Shown here piece after piece: positions 1 to 8,630 of a stretch of 64,000 nt of DNA. The notes under the pieces are model-generated. The model had not been told where the DNA came from, did no database searches, and saw only the letters and a program-made list of their open reading frames with translations. How positions within the stretch are numbered: position 1 is the stretch's first letter; the number at the start of each line of letters is the position of its first letter. The DNA comes from Gaiellaceae bacterium. Its GTDB lineage: Bacteria; Actinomycetota; Thermoleophilia; Gaiellales; Gaiellaceae. A program made the translations under genes and the position numbers. The stretch spans positions 2,114-66,113 of the forward strand of contig DAITAW010000004.1 of assembly GCA_036824055.1 (NCBI GenBank), given 5' to 3'.

Positions 1-1017
1 TGCCTCGACGAGCCCGAGCAGGCGATCGCGGCGCTGGAGGAAGCGTTGGCGCTACGCATAAAGATCAGTGGCCCAGCCGACCGCGAGACACTCCGTGTCA
101 AGGACGCGCTCGCGACCGTCTTTCGGTCGCAGCATCGACTCGACGAAGCAGTGCGATTGCAGGAGGAGATCTTGGCTGCCATCGACGGCCGTCCCGAGCG
201 GAGCATGGTTACGCTTCGGGCGTTGAATGCCCTTGCCGCTCTGCGCCATGAGCAGGGGGAGCTCGCTGAAGCGCGGTCGTTGTTCGGGCGGGTCGTAGCT
301 GCGCGGCGAGAGCGTTTCGGCGACGAGCACCCACTGACCTTGACCGCCCTCAACAATCTCGGCCAGGTCCTGCGCACGCTCAACGATCGCAAGGCGTTGC
401 GGGCATTGAACGAGGAGGTGCTCGCAGCGACCAACGCGCGAGCTGGGGGCGAACATCCAAACACGCTGGCGGCGATGACCAACCTCGCCTTGGTGTTGGC
501 CGACGAGGGTGAGCTGGAGCAAGCGCTCGACCTGCATGGGCGTGTTCTTGGCGTCCGCCGCCGGCGTCTCGGTGACGGCCACCGCTCGACGCTGACCGCG
601 ATGAACAACGTCGGTGATGTGCTGCGCAAGCTCGGCCGTCGCGACGAGGCGCGATCTTTGCTCGAGGAGGCGGCGCGCGGCCTCGCCGGGTTGCTCGGCG
701 ACGACCATCCCGACACGTTGACCGTCCGACTGAATCTGGCCAAGCTGCTCGACGAGCAAGGCGATAGCGACGCAGCGATAGCTATCGCGCGCGCGGTGTT
801 GACCGCGCGCCGCAAAGTCGACGGCGAGACTCACCCGCGCACACTGGCGGCAATCGGCAACTTGGCGGCCATGCTCGAGACAGCGGGCGCCCGCGCTGAG
901 GCCGCCGACTTGTTCAGCGCGATGCGCCGCAACGCGGAGGAAGCACTCGGCGCCGGGCACCCGCTGACGGCGGCAGCCGTCCGGGGCCAGGTGCGGCTCA
1001 GTGCCAACAGTGACTGA
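1..1017 (+). CDS. TPR-repeat protein, C-terminal part (5' end lies outside the window)
   Basis: Frame 1 is open from nt 1, with no stop before the listed ATG at 46. At least 7 tandem units of about 42 aa carry the recurring pattern G(D/E)xHPxTLxxxxNLAxxLxxxGxxxEA, typical of TPR_10/TPR_12-type repeats. Stop at 1015-1017. Confidence 0.8.
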   Translation, partial: CLDEPEQAIAALEEALALRIKISGPADRETLRVKDALATVFRSQHRLDEAVRLQEEILAAIDGRPERSMVTLRALNALAALRHEQGELAEARSLFGRVVAARRERFGDEHPLTLTALNNLGQVLRTLNDRKALRALNEEVLAATNARAGGEHPNTLAAMTNLALVLADEGELEQALDLHGRVLGVRRRRLGDGHRSTLTAMNNVGDVLRKLGRRDEARSLLEEAARGLAGLLGDDHPDTLTVRLNLAKLLDEQGDSDAAIAIARAVLTARRKVDGETHPRTLAAIGNLAAMLETAGARAEAADLFSAMRRNAEEALGAGHPLTAAAVRGQVRLSANSD

Positions 1018-1913: not shown

Positions 1914-2184
1914 TTAGGACGCGGCGCGGACCGTCATCGGTGGCGGCAGGTTGGCGACCTCGAGGCCGACGATCTGACAACGGATTCGGGGTCCATCAAG
2001 ATGATCTTGCTTCTCCTCGCCGCGCTCTGACTTGGATTTCACTGCCCCGCGGGTCGTCAATCTGTGGCGCTTCCGCGATTTTGAGGGTCAGGTCAATATT
2101 TGCCCTGACGCGCTAATGACAATAGGCGATTCGCCCAGGAAAATCTCTTTGAGTCCGCACGGTCCATGGGATAGCGTACATTAG

Positions 2185-2200
2185 TCGAACCTACGTTCGT
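2185..2200. promoter_or_regulatory. LexA/SOS (Cheo) box candidate 1: TCGAAC-CTAC-GTTCGT
   Basis: Matches 11/12 positions of the actinobacterial LexA consensus TCGAAC-N4-GTTCGA. A TATGAT -10-like hexamer follows directly at 2202-2207. Confidence 0.5.
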
Positions 2201-2261
2201 GTATGATCTGCGGTGACTGGAGTTACCGGAGAGCCTGTTAGTACCGGCTAGGCCGGTCCGT

Positions 2262-2277
2262 TAGAACATATGTTCGA
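2262..2277. promoter_or_regulatory. LexA/SOS (Cheo) box candidate 2: TAGAAC-ATAT-GTTCGA
   Basis: GAACATATGTTC is a perfect 12-bp palindrome and matches 11/12 positions of TCGAAC-N4-GTTCGA. It lies 18 nt upstream of the ATG at 2295, just before the AAGGAAG Shine-Dalgarno. Confidence 0.5.
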
Positions 2278-2294
2278 GAGAAAGGAAGTCTGAG

Positions 2295-2534
2295 ATGAGT
2301 AATCAGCGGCACGTAACCAAGGACGGCGACGACTGGGTGGTTAGGAAGCCAGGCGCAGAGCGCGCAAGCTCTCGCCATGGCACCCAGCGTCAGGCTGATC
2401 AGCGCGCCGCGGAGATCTTGGGCAACAGCGGCGGCGGCGAGCGGGTCACCCACGGCTTCGATGGGCAGATCCGCAGCAAGGACACGATCGCGCCTGGCAA
2501 CGACCCCAACCCGCCCAGGGACAAGGAGCACTAG
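2295..2534 (+). CDS. DUF2188-family small protein
   Basis: 79 aa. The pattern HVTKDGDDWVVRKPGAERASSRHGTQRQADQRAAEIL...ERVTHGFDGQIRSKDTIAPGNDPNPPRD matches the DUF2188 pattern (GW-V-k-Ga-Ras...tq-eA...A...HgrDG-Ir..dsyg.DP.PP.D). AAGGAAG SD lies 7 nt upstream of the ATG. Confidence 0.7.
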   Translation: MSNQRHVTKDGDDWVVRKPGAERASSRHGTQRQADQRAAEILGNSGGGERVTHGFDGQIRSKDTIAPGNDPNPPRDKEH

Positions 2535-2641
2535 CTGAGTCGAGCGAGACGCTCGCCAAGGCCACGACGCCACTCAGGGGCGCCAGTTGCGTTGGGTCGT
2601 GACGCAAAACCTCGTACTTGTATCAGGAGAAAGAACGGTAA

Positions 2642-3034
2642 ATGGCGCGGCGTCCCAGAGCATTCATCAGCTTCGATTACGACTACGACCTCGACCTGCG
2701 GAATCTGCTCGTCGGGCAGGCTCGCCACGCAGACACACCGTTCGAGATCGCCGACTGGTCGGTCAGAGAGCGACAGCTTGGCGACTGGAAGGCGAAGGTT
2801 CGTCGGCGTATTCGCGCGGTCGACGTGGTCATTGTTCTTTGCGGTCATCACACGGACGACGCGTCAGGCGTCAGCGAAGAGATCAAGCTCGCCCGTGCCG
2901 AGCGGAAGCCGTATTTCCTGCTTGCAGGTCGCAAGAGTGGGACGGTCAGAAAGCCACGGGCCGCCAGGCCGACCGACAAGGTCTACAGGTGGACGTGGGA
3001 CAACCTGAAGAAGTTGATCCATGGCCGTCGCTAA
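2642..3034 (+). CDS. TIR-like domain protein (DUF1863 / ThsB-like), copy A
   Basis: 130 aa. N-terminal AFISFDYDYD, central VDVVIVLCGHHTDDASGVSEEIKLA and KPYFLL reproduce the strand/helix pattern of MTH538-type TIR-like domains. AGGAGAAAG SD lies upstream. Confidence 0.6.
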   Translation: MARRPRAFISFDYDYDLDLRNLLVGQARHADTPFEIADWSVRERQLGDWKAKVRRRIRAVDVVIVLCGHHTDDASGVSEEIKLARAERKPYFLLAGRKSGTVRKPRAARPTDKVYRWTWDNLKKLIHGRR

Positions 3035-3072
3035 CCCGCCTGCCGACGGAGAGCTTCGGATGAGGAGGAAGA

Positions 3073-3450
3073 ATGGCCCGTGCGTTCATCAGCTTTGAAA
3101 TGGAGGATCGCTGGGCCAGGGAGTTCCTGGTTCAGCACGCCCACGACAAGGACACGAGCATTGACTTCACGGACTACTCCCTGCACGAGCCCTTTGACGA
3201 GAAGTGGAAGACGAACTGCAAGACGCGGATCAACCAGACGAAAGGCACTATCGTCATGGTCGGCCCGAATGCGGCGAAGTCTGAAGCGGTGCTTTGGGAG
3301 ATTGCTGAGACCAACCGCCAGGGCCATCCGATCTTCGGGATCCAGACCCGTAACGAGAAGACTCATCCGATCCCGCAGGGCCTGCCGTCGTCCCGCGTCA
3401 TCCGTTGGGACTTCGATGCAATCGTCAAAGAGCTGAACCGGTGGACGTAG
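3073..3450 (+). CDS. TIR-like domain protein (DUF1863 / ThsB-like), copy B
   Basis: 125 aa. AFISFEMEDRW, GTIVMVGPNAAKSEAVLWEIAETNRQGHPIFGI (the WEI motif carries the candidate catalytic Glu). GAGGAGGAAG SD lies directly upstream, 38 nt after copy A. Confidence 0.65.
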   Translation: MARAFISFEMEDRWAREFLVQHAHDKDTSIDFTDYSLHEPFDEKWKTNCKTRINQTKGTIVMVGPNAAKSEAVLWEIAETNRQGHPIFGIQTRNEKTHPIPQGLPSSRVIRWDFDAIVKELNRWT

Positions 3451-4404
3451 TTGAAGCGCGCACTACTCATCGGCATCGATCAGTACGACAACTTCAACAA
3501 CCTCGCTGGATGCGTCAACGACGCCGATGCCCTCGAGCCGCTCATCAGTCGCAACGAAGACGACAGTCTGAACTTCGAGTGCCAGAAACGAACCAGCGCC
3601 ACTGGCGGCGTCACCCGTGACGCGCTGCTCGGCGACCTTGAGGCTCTTTTCGGCGGAGGAGCAGACATCGCTGTGTTGTACTTCGCCGGCCACGGCGACG
3701 GCGTCCCGAACGACGTGGTGCTGATGACCGTGGACGGGACGAACAACACACCCGGAATCCCGTTTTCGGAAGTGATGACGAAGGTGGTCAACTCTCAGGT
3801 GGGCGAAGTGATCGTCCTCCTCGACTGCTGTTTTTCGGGTGCCGCCGGTGGAATCCCGCAGCTTGGAACGGCCGCCTCGGCCCTGCGCCCAGGGGTATCG
3901 ATCTTGATGGCCAGTCGTGGCGACCAGACGGCCGCCGAAACGGGCGAAGGGCGGGGGTTGTTCTCGACATACCTCTCTGGCGCTCTCGAAGGCGGCGCGG
4001 CCGACGTGCGAGGCAAGGTCACGCTAGCCGGCCTGTACTCGTATCTCGACGAGTCATTCGGCGCCTGGGATCAACGACCGGTGTTCAAGACGAACGTTGA
4101 CCGCCTGCACGAGATCAGGGGGTGCATCCCGACCTTGCCGCCATCTGAGTTGCGCCAGATCAATGCACTGTTTCCGGCCGTTGACCATGTGTTCTCCCTC
4201 GACCCGTCTTACGAAGACACGGTCGAAGATCATGATCCTGAGCACGCGAAGGTCTTCAAAGTCCTGCAGCGGTACCGCTACAGCAAGCTCGTCGACCCAA
4301 TCGACGAGGAGTACATGTATTACGCCGCCGTCAACAGCACCGCTTGCCAGCTCACGCCTCTTGGACGTCACTACTGGCATATGGCAAGTGAAGGCCGCCT
4401 GTGA
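3451..4404 (+). CDS. Caspase-like (peptidase C14 family) protease with a C-terminal extension of about 100 aa
   Basis: 317 aa. KRALLIGIDQY...NLAGCVNDA, His in VLYFAGHGDG (His81, nt 3691-3693) and Cys in VLLDCCFSG (Cys127, nt 3829-3831) form the caspase/metacaspase His-Cys dyad context. The TTG start abuts the TAG stop of the preceding gene. Confidence 0.8.
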   Translation: MKRALLIGIDQYDNFNNLAGCVNDADALEPLISRNEDDSLNFECQKRTSATGGVTRDALLGDLEALFGGGADIAVLYFAGHGDGVPNDVVLMTVDGTNNTPGIPFSEVMTKVVNSQVGEVIVLLDCCFSGAAGGIPQLGTAASALRPGVSILMASRGDQTAAETGEGRGLFSTYLSGALEGGAADVRGKVTLAGLYSYLDESFGAWDQRPVFKTNVDRLHEIRGCIPTLPPSELRQINALFPAVDHVFSLDPSYEDTVEDHDPEHAKVFKVLQRYRYSKLVDPIDEEYMYYAAVNSTACQLTPLGRHYWHMASEGRL

Positions 4405-4877
4405 CACGCATCGGCGCAACCGGTCATCAGGAGTTGCCTGTCGAGGCCGGCCCGTACATCCTCGAGCACGTCCGAGGCATCCTCTCCGGCTGCAGTGCGC
4501 CGCTTCGCGCTGTGACCGCCCTCGCCGCAGGCGCTGACCAGCTCGTAGCCCGCGAGGTCCTGCGTAACGGCGGCAGCCTGTATGCGATCGTCCCGGCAGT
4601 TGGCTACGAGGGCACCTTCACGGGGGAGGACTTGCGCGAATACGAGTATTTGCTTGCGCAGGCAGACCAGTTGACACGGCTCGACTTTCCCGAGCCGTCC
4701 GAGCACGCGTACTGGGCTGCCGGCAAGACCATGGTCGACAACTGCGACGTCCTCGTGGCCATTTGGGATGGCGAGCCCGCGCGCGGTCTGGGCGGAACCG
4801 GCGACGTGGTCGCCTACGCCGAAACCAGCAGCAAAGACGTACGTGTGATTTGGCCCGATGGGGTCGTGCGCGAATGA
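4401..4877 (+). CDS. Free-standing SLOG (SMF/DprA-LOG) superfamily domain protein
   Basis: 158 aa. GATGHQ..., ALAAGADQLVAREVL (DprA-like GxD helix) and VLVAIWDGEPARGLGGTGDVVAYA (LOG-like GGxGT motif). The GTG start overlaps the caspase stop (GTGA at 4401-4404). Confidence 0.55.
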   Translation: MTRIGATGHQELPVEAGPYILEHVRGILSGCSAPLRAVTALAAGADQLVAREVLRNGGSLYAIVPAVGYEGTFTGEDLREYEYLLAQADQLTRLDFPEPSEHAYWAAGKTMVDNCDVLVAIWDGEPARGLGGTGDVVAYAETSSKDVRVIWPDGVVRE

Positions 4878-4914
4878 TCCAGATCCAGCTACCGACAACC
4901 CGAGGAGGTGTGCC

Positions 4915-5466
4915 GTGGCCTATGTGACCTTGTCCGAAGCCCGCAGCGCTGCCGCGACTCGTTGGGTGACCAAGTCGCTGGCCGAGTCGGCCTTACGCAC
5001 AGCCGCGGCTGCCTCGACGAGCACCGATTACGACATCTTCTTGTCTCATTCAAGGGAGGATGCGCAGGTGATCGCCGGCGTAAAGACGCTGCTCGAGCAG
5101 GAAGGCGCGAGCGTCTATGTGTACTGGGCGGAAGAGAACCAGGTTGCACCCGTTACGGCATCAACCGCCGCCAAGCTGCGCGTGCGCATGAACCACTGCC
5201 GTTCGTTGATCTACGCCAGCTCGGAAGCATCGCCGCAGTCGAAGTGGATGCCGTGGGAGCTTGGCTATTTCGACGGACGAAAGCCCGGACATGTCGCGAT
5301 CATGCCGCTGCCATCGTCGAGTACCTTCACTGGGCAGGAGTACCTCGGTTTGTACCCGAACGTCGAGCGAGTATCGTTCCAGTCCGGACGACGCGGCCTT
5401 GCCGTCCGGAACCCGGCCACTACGAAGGCTCTGTCGAGCTTCATGCGTGAAGGGCTGAGCTTGTAG
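4915..5466 (+). CDS. Canonical TIR-domain protein
   Basis: YDIFLSHSREDAQ..., SLIYASSEASPQSKWMPWELGYFDG (candidate catalytic Glu at nt 5257-5259). I prefer the GTG at 4915 because GAGGAGG lies at 4902-4908. The track ATG at 4858 would overlap the SLOG gene by 20 nt. Confidence 0.8.
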   Translation: MAYVTLSEARSAAATRWVTKSLAESALRTAAAASTSTDYDIFLSHSREDAQVIAGVKTLLEQEGASVYVYWAEENQVAPVTASTAAKLRVRMNHCRSLIYASSEASPQSKWMPWELGYFDGRKPGHVAIMPLPSSSTFTGQEYLGLYPNVERVSFQSGRRGLAVRNPATTKALSSFMREGLSL

Positions 5467-5736
5467 TCCGATGGCTGCTGGCAAGAGCGTCGACCCGGAG
5501 CCGATGTCCACGCCGTGGACGCTTAGTGGGCGTCGAAGATGTCCTCCGCCGCCGAGCGCGGAGCAACAGAAACAGCCGCTAAGCACGAAATAAGTTCAAG
5601 CCCTCTGAGGGAGTCGAGCGTAACTACCGTTCTCACAAGCGCCGACAGCCCCTATGACCTCCTGGCTGCGTACCAGGCGCGGGCGTAATTTGCTTAAAGT
5701 GTGAGCTGAAGACTCCAGTCAACACGCTTCGCAAGT

Positions 5737-7503
5737 TTGCCCAAGGACACCTTTCCCGAGATCAATTCACTGTCGTGGCGGCAGGTGAGCTTGCTGACCC
5801 GGACTCTCGAAAAGCACCGGGAACTCTTACAGGCGGGTCATGAGGACGCGCGACGTGCGGCGCTTCTTGGTTCCCGACCCGCGTACGTCGTCGACTTTCA
5901 ACTCATCGAGGGCTACGTCTTTCCAATGGATGGTCCTCCGGAATGGAACGTTGAGCTTGGTTACTTATTCGGGCTGGGTCAAACGACTTTTGTCATTGGA
6001 CCCGGCACTCAGGTCGAGATTGCACGATTTCTCGAGTCTCTCGGCTTCTATCAGGACGAAGATGGGTTGGTCCATCAGGTGAAACCCAAATGGCGGCCGG
6101 GGCGGTCCAGTGGCGCCGCCGCGGAAGACGCGACAGCGTTGGCCCTCGATCGGCTCTCTCATCTGCTGAGCCAGAGCAACTTTGTTACCTATGACGAGCT
6201 CGTTGGCGATTCGACTGCGGAACTCGACGGAGACGGCTTCGACCAGGACGCGTATCGAACGGCGCTGGCAATACTCGAAGGGACTCCGCTGCGAAGAAAG
6301 GCATCGAGTTCTGCTAACAGAGCCGACGCTCTGAACTGGGCAACAGTGATTCAGCTCCGACGCGACCCGGCAAGAGATCGACAGATTTATCCATATCTTC
6401 TGACGGCCACACGCCCTCTTCTCGACGAGACTCTCTGGTCAGATGCGAGCAGATCGCCGGTGTCGCGTGCGCCAGCGGAAGCAATCTTCTCCGAGGTGCT
6501 ACTTGCGAGCTTTGCGAGGCCTGCCGAGGCAGCAGACCACACGGTAGAGATGGCCTTCGAGACCGCACGGCTCGAGCGCGACTTAAGGAAGAGTCCTGCC
6601 TATCGAGACCCTGACAAATTTTCTGAGGAGGCGGATTGGGAGCGAGCCCTGGAGCACGATCGCATAAGTCCTCGGCTGAGAGGCGAGCTTTCGGAGATGG
6701 CACGCTTCACGACGGATCCGATCGTCATTGAAACTCAGCGCATCTATTCTGCTGCCTCGCTCACCGCGAGTAGCACCTTTCAACAGCGTGGTATCAGCTC
6801 TGAGTCTTCTATCCTCGAGTCCCCACAGAGGCTTTTCGACCTGATCAATGGAATTAACGCGGCGTTAGTGGCCACCGCCGGCGGTCCGTCACCGATGGCC
6901 GACTTATGGAAATCGTTGCTGGAGGTCGAAGAAAAGACTGCAACGGGGTATCTGAGCTACTCAGTGGTGGATCGCGTACGGAACGATGAGACATATAGCT
7001 ACCTAGTTGCCGAAGTGCATTCGCCTCAGACGAGCGACACTGACGACGACGCGAGTCTCATCGTTTCCCGCTGGCGAAGTTCGCTTGACGGGGAAGCGAT
7101 CCTAGCTACGTTTTCTGACGCCTTCTCGCAAGCGAACGCCGAAACCGTGGACGTTCTCGTCGGAACTCCTATGGGGGTTGCCGAATTCGACGCGGATATT
7201 CCACTCACCTTGCTTGAGATTGTCAGCGCTTGCGAAAAAGCAGGGGCGTTCGGGAGGAGTGAAGTCGGCGTGCCCGCGATTAACTGGGTGAGGCTGGCGG
7301 CACCACCGTTTGAACTCTTCGCGGAGCTCACTGCAAGACCGCCGCGAACTCCCTTGATCGGTGTTTTCGCAAGCCGGTTCGATGAACCCCGGCTAGGCGA
7401 CCTCTTTCGACGTACGTCAGGGAGATATCTCTTCGCGGCTTGGCTTGAGCGAGCACTAGAAGACATCGAGCGACGTACGATGCAAGACCGAGTTGTCGCC
7501 TGA
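5737..7503 (+). CDS. Hypothetical protein, 588 aa, no recognisable domain
   Basis: A long ORF with a balanced, protein-like composition in a visibly AT-richer stretch. The opposing ORFs are Ser/Arg-rich shadows. The TTG start is uncertain. Confidence 0.6.
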   Translation: MPKDTFPEINSLSWRQVSLLTRTLEKHRELLQAGHEDARRAALLGSRPAYVVDFQLIEGYVFPMDGPPEWNVELGYLFGLGQTTFVIGPGTQVEIARFLESLGFYQDEDGLVHQVKPKWRPGRSSGAAAEDATALALDRLSHLLSQSNFVTYDELVGDSTAELDGDGFDQDAYRTALAILEGTPLRRKASSSANRADALNWATVIQLRRDPARDRQIYPYLLTATRPLLDETLWSDASRSPVSRAPAEAIFSEVLLASFARPAEAADHTVEMAFETARLERDLRKSPAYRDPDKFSEEADWERALEHDRISPRLRGELSEMARFTTDPIVIETQRIYSAASLTASSTFQQRGISSESSILESPQRLFDLINGINAALVATAGGPSPMADLWKSLLEVEEKTATGYLSYSVVDRVRNDETYSYLVAEVHSPQTSDTDDDASLIVSRWRSSLDGEAILATFSDAFSQANAETVDVLVGTPMGVAEFDADIPLTLLEIVSACEKAGAFGRSEVGVPAINWVRLAAPPFELFAELTARPPRTPLIGVFASRFDEPRLGDLFRRTSGRYLFAAWLERALEDIERRTMQDRVVA

Positions 7504-7505
7504 TT

Positions 7506-8030
7506 ATGGCTGTACGCTTTAAGGGGTTTCTCTCGAAACTGGCCCCGGAACGAAGTCGCGCAGCACGGGTGTTGGCGAGCCGGGACGAGGAAACCGTCGG
7601 CTACTGGACCTTGCCCGAGCACCACGGCGTGGAGATTGCCTTCTTCCTCCAATTCCATGATTCGGACGATCAGGCCCTTGCCAAGCGTAAAGCGCGGATT
7701 CGCGTTGCGTACCGGAACTTTCAGCCAGAGACACTCCATTTCAAACGACGCATCGGATCGTCGGGGTCGACTGTTGAGGACTACAAGGAGGATGACGAGC
7801 TGATCATTTGGGCGGCCAGGAACGATGACGATCGGGCCCCCTATGTCGAGCGGATCCTCGACGACGCTGTTGGCGTACGAAAGCGTCCGGACCGTTCTGA
7901 ACTTCAGGCGAAGATTGAATTTACAGAGCCTCAGCAGTACAGAGTATTGGGCGTCGACGAGTTCAGGTTCGCCTTTCCAGACGGAGGCAATGCCAAGTGC
8001 GTGTGTTGCTTGCAGTTTTTCCGTATCTAG
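7506..8030 (+). CDS. Hypothetical protein, 174 aa
   Basis: ATG lies 2 nt after the TGA of the 588-aa gene (tgattATG), which suggests coupling. The composition is protein-like. No known motif. Confidence 0.55.
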   Translation: MAVRFKGFLSKLAPERSRAARVLASRDEETVGYWTLPEHHGVEIAFFLQFHDSDDQALAKRKARIRVAYRNFQPETLHFKRRIGSSGSTVEDYKEDDELIIWAARNDDDRAPYVERILDDAVGVRKRPDRSELQAKIEFTEPQQYRVLGVDEFRFAFPDGGNAKCVCCLQFFRI

Positions 8031-8398
8031 CATCCCTCGCCGTGTACCTGTTCAACGCGCGTGATCTCTTCCTGAACACACGCCCGCCGCCGCATTGGAC
8101 TTGGCGGCTCTCAGCGCCGGTGATGATCGCGGGCCTGACCCCTCTTGCTCTGGCCTCGAAGACCTCGGCCGTATCGAGTGGGGAGCAGAACCTTCTATTG
8201 CTAGCTCCCGCCTTGGGAGTGATGTATGCGGTCCTCGCGTTTGGTCGCTTCCGAGAGAAGGATTTTCTGGCGCTACATCGCCCGTTTACGTTCTTCGATA
8301 GGGAGATCAAGTTTCTGTCGCGTCGCCGCTTTTGGATCGGCCTAGGAGCCTTGGTGATCGCCTACGCGGCCGCGGCGAACATCTATGTGAGCGCATAA
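7997..8398 (+). CDS. Hypothetical small integral membrane protein (3-4 predicted TM segments)
   Basis: Hydrophobic stretches LLAVFPYLASLAVYLF, APVMIAGLTPLALA, LLLLAPALGVMYAVLAF and WIGLGALVIAYAAAANIYV. The GTG start overlaps the preceding gene by 34 nt. Confidence 0.5.
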   Translation: MRVLLAVFPYLASLAVYLFNARDLFLNTRPPPHWTWRLSAPVMIAGLTPLALASKTSAVSSGEQNLLLLAPALGVMYAVLAFGRFREKDFLALHRPFTFFDREIKFLSRRRFWIGLGALVIAYAAAANIYVSA

Positions 8399-8630
8399 TG
8401 GCTCGTCTGGCCTAATTGACCGCTGGTGTCCAAAAAGGAGGCCTTTGGTGAGGTGGACCACGAGAGCGGTGGACGTGCTAATCAGCGGGCAAGAAGATCT
8501 GCGCGCCTTGGCCGTTTGCGAATCGCCGTCCCGTTAAGAATCCGTCGCGGGGCGCGAAATCCGCGAAATTCTCCCGTTAAGCGGTCGGGCCTAGCGTCAA
8601 CCCCGCTCGTGCGCTGGGCTGCGAAGTTGA

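Follow-up and report, generated by a model that had tools for sequence, protein, structure and literature searches.

We describe here a caspase-like protease encoded in a window of 64,000 nucleotides (the whole stretch of DNA analysed) from a Gaiellaceae bacterium (assembly GCA_036824055.1, contig DAITAW010000004.1, positions 2,114 to 66,113 of the forward strand). The gene is an open reading frame (ORF) of 317 aa with a TTG start, located at 3451..4404 (+) of the window, and its product joins a caspase (C14) domain to an additional C-terminal domain, hereafter called the tail. Our reading, to which we give a probability of roughly 0.6, is that this ORF encodes the ThsE-type effector protease of a type IV Thoeris-like anti-phage system and that the tail is most likely the receiver of the signal.

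In such a system, phage infection would lead one or more of the flanking TIR proteins to convert nicotinamide adenine dinucleotide (NAD+) to an isomer of cyclic ADP-ribose (cADPR); this signal would bind the winged-helix-like tail, probably where the pairing of two protomers creates an interface, and the bound tail would then release the caspase domain (dyad H81/C127), which would cut cellular proteins and abort the infection. The data show the domain architecture, the fold, family membership, the TIR linkage and the conservation of the tail together with its restriction to this caspase; binding by the tail, a cADPR isomer as the signal and activation through dimerisation are inferred. A SLOG-like protein encoded just downstream would most likely be an accessory of its clade, acting as a second binder or co-sensor, as a buffer or as a signal degrader.

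The caspase-like protease and its tail

The frame at 3451-4404 is no chance reading frame, given its more than 5,000 clusters of full-length homologues at E<=1e-3; the best 120 of these measure 294-322 aa and align over 91-100% of the query, and homologues begin with the same N-terminus, M-[KR]-[KR]-A-L. Pfam Peptidase_C14 (PF00656) spans residues 2-183 (E 6.9e-15), and the NCBIfam model caspase_w_EACC1 spans residues 3-202 under its cut-off (93.8 vs 140 bits). The full protein, modelled with AlphaFold2 on 81 sequences, reaches a predicted local distance difference test score (pLDDT) of 96.0 and a predicted template modelling score (pTM) of 0.91. Residues 1-225 of the model superpose on the MALT1 paracaspase (3v4o; Z 23.2, root-mean-square deviation (rmsd) 3.0, 201 aligned), and also on metacaspase 4 (6w8r, Z 23.0), metacaspase 9 and caspases. 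H81 and C127 are each at least 90% conserved in the 81 sequences, and the neighbouring C126 is variable. The C14 match, the MALT1 fold match and the lack of any family for the tail together confirm what a preliminary description had proposed from the DNA, namely a caspase-like protease with an uncharacterised C-terminal domain. Its C14 fold and its dyad stand as well; its boundary at about residue 215 has to be moved, since the caspase fold, and with it the protease domain, takes in two final strands at 211-224, which leaves for the extra domain residues ~226-317 (~92 aa, nt ~4126-4401).

The tail has no match in Pfam, NCBIfam or PADLOC. It has no sequence relative in the PDB either, where single-protein matches stop at or before residue 193 and where a profile of the tail finds at best a nanobody (E 0.2). 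Structure prediction, one of the checks put forward in the preliminary description, gave a confident winged-helix-like model: modelled alone on 81 sequences, the tail reaches a pLDDT of 94.7, with the elements in the order helix, strand, helix, short helix, hairpin, helix. When the model was compared exhaustively with 48,161 PDB representatives, no structure reached Z >=8; the 50 best VIA-align rows are almost all filled by MarR/HxlR/ArsR-type winged helices with Z between 5.2 and 6.6, the best of them being the MarR-type 5h3r (Z 6.6, rmsd 3.1, 69 aligned, ~10% identity). Foldseek places first another MarR protein, 3voe (E 0.014, template modelling score (TM) 0.49), and finds none at E<=1e-3. 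As these matches are weak, we call the tail winged-helix-like and claim no homology: it is predicted with high confidence to fold into a compact winged-helix-like module, with a weak resemblance to MarR.

Conservation of the tail across the 81 sequences is high. F241, L250, A292, A293, L301 and G305 are invariant, P252, E255, Q273, L280, P283, T302 and Y308 are conserved in at least 98%, and F269, L272 and C299 are invariant or nearly so, as are R209, P210 and R223 at the domain junction. R209 reaches at least 90%, and R223, D251 and Y290 at least 80%. Searched alone against 1.84 billion representatives, the tail gave 457 matches at E<=1e-3; the best 150 of them comprise 80 complete caspases, 35 N-truncated caspases and 35 short fragments (71-199 aa, mostly tail), none with another recognised effector domain. 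A search of the ESM Atlas with caspase clusters excluded yielded no named cluster, only ones of 143-193 aa whose feature scores do not exceed 0.86 and which look like fragments of the same family. Indeed, because these searches yield caspases and fragments, the tail is to be seen as a fixed part of one caspase family and not as a mobile module; it occurs essentially only behind this caspase. Longer proteins bearing the tail are caspases too. Among the unusual architectures that we came across, one protein of 1017 aa (P0163) has two caspase-like regions ahead of the tail, and two others, P0164 (247 aa) and P0237 (308 aa), carry an extension of ~100 aa after it. An RyR-like identity for these two extensions was considered and dropped, as it found no support from Pfam or from a hidden Markov model (HMM) of RyR-like neighbour genes.

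One has to keep in mind that the best fold matches of the tail are DNA-binding proteins of the MarR, HxlR and ArsR types, so that it could be read as a winged helix binding nucleic acid or recognising substrates, or the whole protein as a metacaspase with a housekeeping role and a generic appendage. MarR proteins, which form dimers, bind small ligands between their domains, and 5h3r and 3voe do share a similar topology with the tail. These matches are, however, no better than Z 6.6 or a Foldseek E of 0.014, and, unlike MarR-type winged helices, the tail has no basic surface: its net charge is -5 (isoelectric point 5.6) in the window protein and 0 at the median of 81 homologues, and the helix that occupies the recognition-helix position has six residues and holds the invariant, probably buried A292/A293, all of which makes DNA binding unlikely. 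As for a housekeeping metacaspase, the protease domain finds its best fold matches in MALT1 and the type II metacaspases (Z 23), but their flanking Ig-like domains and p10 linker are unrelated to the tail and they have no TIR-operon context; solved metacaspases align to residues 1-228 only, and the family studied here is TIR-linked and patchy. We thus hold both versions of this explanation to be highly improbable.

TIR linkage and relation to type IV Thoeris

Type IV Thoeris, as described in the text of Rousset et al. (10.1101/2024.10.24.620036; cited in 10.64898/2025.12.03.692087 as Science 387:510, 2025), consists of a ThsB TIR and a ThsE caspase-like protease, for example PsTIR and PsCaspase of Pseudomonas sp. 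1-7; the short TIR makes N7-cADPR, which activates a caspase-like protease that cuts promiscuously after Arg in an abortive-infection defence, and the Pseudomonas-type system is presented as a two-gene operon. The detection rule in the Methods of 10.1101/2024.10.24.620036 combines a caspase HMM with PF13676 or PF08937, and the window holds a C14 caspase with a His-Cys dyad beside ThsB_TIR/TIR_2 genes. As in the published system, the gene for a caspase-like protein of ~320 aa is directly preceded by that for a short ThsB-type TIR: the caspase TTG start at 3451 directly follows the TAG stop of TIR 2 (3448-3450), with GGTGGA just upstream, TIR 1 being positioned 420 nt upstream of the caspase and TIR 3 downstream of it. 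TIR 2 has E76 in a Glu column that is invariant across 14 aligned TIRs, and TIR 1, which keeps the Glu of the catalytic column, matches at E 1e-44 an HMM built from 48 short TIRs of the genome loci presented below.

The preliminary description had also called for a comparison with a published TIR-caspase system, and in this comparison PsCaspase, whose sequence is printed together with that of PsTIR in Supplementary Data 1 of PMC13243611 (a 2026 sponge paper), has by eye the same architecture. Aligned by eye, C127 of the window protein falls on C129 of PsCaspase and E76 of TIR 2 on E79 of PsTIR; the C-terminal motifs QRPVFKTNV, LDPSYE, LQ.Y, HM..AA and LT.LG.HY are, again by eye, common to PsCaspase and the window family. 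Over its full length, the window caspase is 39-41% identical to plasmid proteins of P. aeruginosa and Paenarthrobacter, the former being, by eye only, ~60% identical to PsCaspase. Several features nevertheless differ from type IV as published. The window caspase is ~38-41% identical to Pseudomonas-type members and falls in a separate caspase clade; it comes with three TIR genes of two classes instead of one and with a translationally coupled SLOG-like third gene that the published text does not mention; its tail is devoid of the insertion of ~8-10 residues found in the Pseudomonas-type tail.

Genome loci were collected by a pattern search of species-representative genomes with a 12-row alignment, in which 525 of the 601 matches were confirmed as relatives and 80 were kept. 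They come from many bacterial phyla, candidate-phyla groups and one archaeon, and all 80 caspases align from residues 1-3 to at least residue 308. According to the short-TIR HMM, a short TIR on the same strand adjoins the caspase in 68 of the 80 loci (57 upstream within 400 nt, 19 downstream within 1,200 nt), and a short TIR is present anywhere in the locus in 71. Pfam finds a TIR in 54 of the 74 ORFs upstream of the caspase and in many downstream ORFs; adding the TIR_2-type neighbours of L045 and L052, a TIR is adjacent to the caspase in 70 of the 80 loci. Two further loci, L010 and L011, have a TIR in another orientation, and no TIR was detected in eight (L004, L008, L009, L016, L020, L048, L062 and L074), with only 65 nt of upstream sequence covered in the case of L020. 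Tandem or multiple TIRs are common, and tblastn finds relatives of TIR 3 in 12 of the 80 loci, beside the caspase gene in seven of them (L028, L036, L052, L057, L063, L064 and L082). The closest relative of the window caspase among the 80 loci (68% identity) is that of L010 (1165-3735, -), where a divergently oriented gene for an 857-aa protein with Trypsin_2 and TIR_2 domains lies upstream of the caspase and no short TIR is present. On plasmids, 74 records match the caspase, 49 of them over at least 80% of the query at ~38-44% identity; they belong to Pseudomonadota, Bacillota and Actinomycetota, and their annotation reads "caspase family protein", with a "TIR domain-containing protein" alongside. 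A single-chain fusion of TIR_2, TPR, caspase and tail also exists (P0170, 836 aa), which supports a functional link between TIR and caspase.

The gene itself is distributed sporadically: it was found in one of the 31 genomes searched, the window's own, the others, many of which are incomplete, being 18 genomes from its genus and 12 from its order. Such a distribution is in keeping with a mobile defence island, and the stretch around the gene (window 2.0-8.5 kb) has a GC content of 0.58-0.63 vs ~0.69 on both sides. The type IV Thoeris-like system is accessory and is probably carried on a horizontally acquired island of lower GC, a defence-island location and a patchy distribution being two more features shared with type IV Thoeris. 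A generic appendage of housekeeping metacaspases, which the preliminary description had named as the case that would speak against its idea, is thus at odds with a family that is TIR-adjacent in the proportion given above, with solved metacaspases in which the tail is absent and with a gene present in a single genome out of 31.

The caspase with its tail is a member of the known type IV Thoeris, and the operon is probably a three-gene variant of it. The view of the tail as a dedicated ligand- or partner-binding domain of a TIR-switched protease, expected in the preliminary description, is likewise supported by the TIR context and by the same role proposed for this domain in PsCaspase; it is a hypothesis already in print, as the Discussion of 10.1101/2024.10.24.620036 hypothesises that the C-terminal domain of PsCaspase binds N7-cADPR. 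On how a small molecule switches the Thoeris caspase, the text of the discovery paper goes no further than this hypothesis; our literature search found no later paper settling whether the tail binds N7-cADPR and no structure, fold or binding data on the type IV tail in the texts available. The question is now narrowed to a compact, confidently modelled tail with a short list of invariant residues that is never found without this caspase. Should the simple reading hold, the window would represent one more defence locus of a known family, of value chiefly for annotation.

The coupled SLOG-like gene and competing readings

The adjacent SLOG-like gene is a second candidate sensor, which the preliminary description did not consider. 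Its GTG start overlaps the TGA stop of the caspase (GTGA), and its 158-aa product has no Pfam match of its own and no effector domain according to Pfam, PADLOC v2.0.0 and NCBIfam. Profile matches are weak (DprA E 0.15, YpsA E 0.53); its ESM Atlas model (pTM 0.92) matches a YpsA/DprA cluster at TM 0.80 and reaches TM 0.86-0.91 with the domains that stand N-terminally in NUDIX, SLATT and RyR fusion proteins. Its family counts 621 clusters; among 34 members, Pfam recognises DNA_processg_A in 6 and YpsA in 2, and TGHQ, LAxGADQ and GLGGTxD stand out as motifs with little or no variation across 34 sequences. The model, together with a sequence-level support that is weak, points to a Rossmann-like SLOG fold with Gly-rich nucleotide loops.

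In 12 of the 80 genome loci, a family HMM detects a SLOG-like gene as the next gene after the caspase; the same arrangement occurs in the window and in the B. subtilis plasmid pBS72, whose SLOG-like protein is 43% identical to that of the window and has the same 4-nt overlap with the caspase. These pairs span Actinomycetota, Planctomycetota, Bacteroidota and Bacillota. In a quick maximum-likelihood tree of 84 caspases, all 14 SLOG-linked ones fall within one 19-row set (Shimodaira-Hasegawa-like approximate likelihood ratio test (SH-aLRT) support 95), and the window caspase belongs to a distinct clade marked by the coupled SLOG-like gene. Residues 119, 266 and 276 (nt ~3805, 4246 and 4276) are the only positions where at least 85% of the 14 SLOG-linked caspases agree and no more than 15% of the other 70 share the residue. 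A predicted complex of the caspase with the SLOG-like protein scored 0.00 in both runs, without controls, and speaks neither for nor against binding.

The SLOG-like protein could thus be the true receptor of the TIR signal in this clade, the tail being only a docking, dimerisation or allosteric module that receives the SLOG protein and thus binds a partner instead of a ligand. The gene overlap and the recurrence of the pair in four phyla go in this direction, as does the indirect sign of co-location given by the 28 identical longest-contig sizes shared by the best-120 match lists of the two proteins. In addition, ThsA of type I Thoeris binds its signal through a SLOG domain (Introduction of 10.64898/2025.12.03.692087), and longer relatives of the same SLOG clade are fused to SLATT_1/DUF4231, NUDIX, PNP_UDP_1, MPAB_Lcp_cat, TrkA_N or RyR, a layout typical of sensor-effector proteins. 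Two of the three SLOG-linked-specific residues, 266 and 276, sit on the long helix of the tail, a pattern confounded by kinship, as shared ancestry alone may explain it. On the other hand, no caspase fusion was found among the 34 longer SLOG-like relatives, and the tail is just as conserved in 70 of the 84 compared caspases, those lacking a SLOG-like neighbour and among them the two-gene Pseudomonas type, so that its core function cannot be SLOG docking. We therefore regard a SLOG receptor as doubtful. The likeness to ThsA, a SIR2 effector with a SLOG sensor, is that a TIR-made cADPR isomer would activate an effector and that a SLOG-fold module is predicted in the operon; the window differs in that this module is a separate 158-aa protein and that the effector, which has no SIR2, is a protease bearing an extra domain of its own.

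Two intermingled systems may also be considered, in which the SLOG-like protein would be an independent Thoeris module (a type III-like set) or an off-switch degrading or buffering the signal, the caspase tail still being the sensor of the caspase's own system. Three TIR genes of two classes do flank the caspase-SLOG pair; the Introduction of 10.64898/2025.12.03.692087 describes type III Thoeris as several TIR proteins with a SLOG-containing effector, and islands mixing several ThsB genes and effectors are reported in the same text. The likeness of the window to type III as described lies in its three TIR genes and one SLOG-like gene and is not sufficient alone. LOG-family enzymes are N-glycosidases acting on adenine nucleotides, which makes the ring-opening of an N-linked cADPR isomer chemically plausible and counts for an off-switch. 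Against an independent module, the 158-aa protein has no effector domain, and its gene is tied to the caspase and not to the TIR: the flanks analysed of L004, L008 and L009, which have the pair, contain no TIR. This explanation seems to us rather unlikely.

Returning to the tail as receiver of the TIR signal, several observations weigh against it. The winged-helix match is weak (no Z >=8, no Foldseek E<=1e-3) and silent on any pocket, and a term search of the main text of PMC13243611 found the C-terminal domain of the effector unmentioned. C299 and W309, almost invariant in the family, differ by eye in PsCaspase and are therefore not essential for the characterised activity. The ~38-41% identity to the Pseudomonas type leaves room for a different isomer as the signal in the window. 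Moreover, the clade has its second candidate sensor in the SLOG-like protein, with relatives fused to effector domains, and 5 of the 14 SLOG-linked loci have no short TIR on the same strand, two of them (L008 and L009) having no TIR at all within flanks of ~4 kb; the pair may thus sometimes answer to something other than an adjacent TIR.

We also propose, tentatively and with less than even confidence, that the window belongs to a three-component branch of type IV, as yet undescribed, in which the coupled stand-alone SLOG protein takes part in signalling. "Undescribed" applies here to the published main text; the supplementary tables of the two preprints may already list SLOG-bearing or multi-TIR variants. 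The SLOG protein could be a co-receptor handing the TIR signal to the tail or, by analogy with the CARF ring nucleases, an N-glycosidase or a sponge that sets a threshold or resets the system. Stand-alone CARF ring nucleases have such a reset role in type III CRISPR (clustered regularly interspaced short palindromic repeats). The signal of this branch may be a cADPR isomer other than N7-cADPR, and the caspase-SLOG pair may act as a portable effector cassette where no TIR is at hand, as in the CATRA/EAD1 surroundings of L004. In that locus (Frankia sp. R82, 2252-5995), a caspase and SLOG-like pair 57% identical to that of the window is bordered on one side by a CATRA-N/CATRA-C/EAD1 protein and on the other by a CATASP-like ORF, and the flanks of ~4 kb contain no TIR. 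Comparison with the SLOG-linked clade is a natural way to ask whether a second protein has taken over sensing, buffering or signal turnover, a handover that, if true, would parallel the regulatory layers of type III CRISPR signalling and of CBASS (cyclic-oligonucleotide-based anti-phage signalling system).

The low-GC island and further neighbours

The genes of the island form a tight row on the + strand between 2295 and 8030 (Table 1). Scans for regulatory sites within 2000-8500 were uninformative, with 3 promoter-like sites vs 1.3 +/- 1.1 in shuffles and 4 terminator-like sites vs 5.1 +/- 2.2.

Table 1. Genes and domains of the low-GC island, with the RyR-like genes found after the caspase at other loci
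Feature	Position	Strand	Basis
DUF2188 protein, 79 aa	2295-2534	+	Pfam E 1.2e-16; PADLOC candidate system PDC-S16 E 2.1e-19
TIR gene 1, 130 aa, ThsB-type short TIR	2642..3034	+	Pfam ThsB_TIR E 3e-08; PADLOC ThsB E 3e-4
TIR gene 2, 125 aa, ThsB-type short TIR	3073..3450	+	Pfam ThsB_TIR E 4.2e-14; PADLOC ThsB E 1.8e-09
Caspase (C14) protease domain, ThsE-like effector, residues 1-225, dyad H81/C127	3451..4125	+	Pfam PF00656; fold; conservation
Caspase C-terminal domain (tail), residues ~226-317 plus stop, putative signal receiver/activation domain	4126..4404	+	winged-helix-like model
Stand-alone SLOG-like protein, 158 aa	4401..4877	+	GTG start overlaps caspase TGA stop
TIR gene 3, 202 aa, different ThsB/TIR_2 class	4858..5466	+	PADLOC ThsB PDLC00422 E 1.2e-57; Pfam TIR_2 E 2.8e-06
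Two adjoining ORFs, 588 aa and 174 aa	5737-7503 and 7506-8030	+	no Pfam, PADLOC or NCBIfam match
~93-aa RyR-like gene at other loci	L002:5002-5280, L003:5987-6268, L055:4993-5268, L059:4900-5283; matches also in L061, L074		HMM

The SLOG-linked clade is not the only one with a companion gene. In another clade of 6 rows (support 99), which includes the P. aeruginosa plasmid protein, a gene of ~93 aa lies right after the caspase; its product has a weak RyR-domain likeness (Pfam E ~1e-3), and an HMM of its own finds it in 4 of the 80 genome loci and on 2 plasmids.

Upstream of TIR 1, the DUF2188 protein could be a second effector served by the same TIRs, DUF2188 being presented in the text of 10.64898/2025.12.03.692087 as a putative Thoeris effector in a multi-ThsB island. 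At the other end of the row, the two adjoining ORFs may form a further, uncharacterised defence pair. Finally, an ORF at window 1-1017 (+), open at its 5' end, encodes 338 aa with repeats that look like TPR by eye alone.

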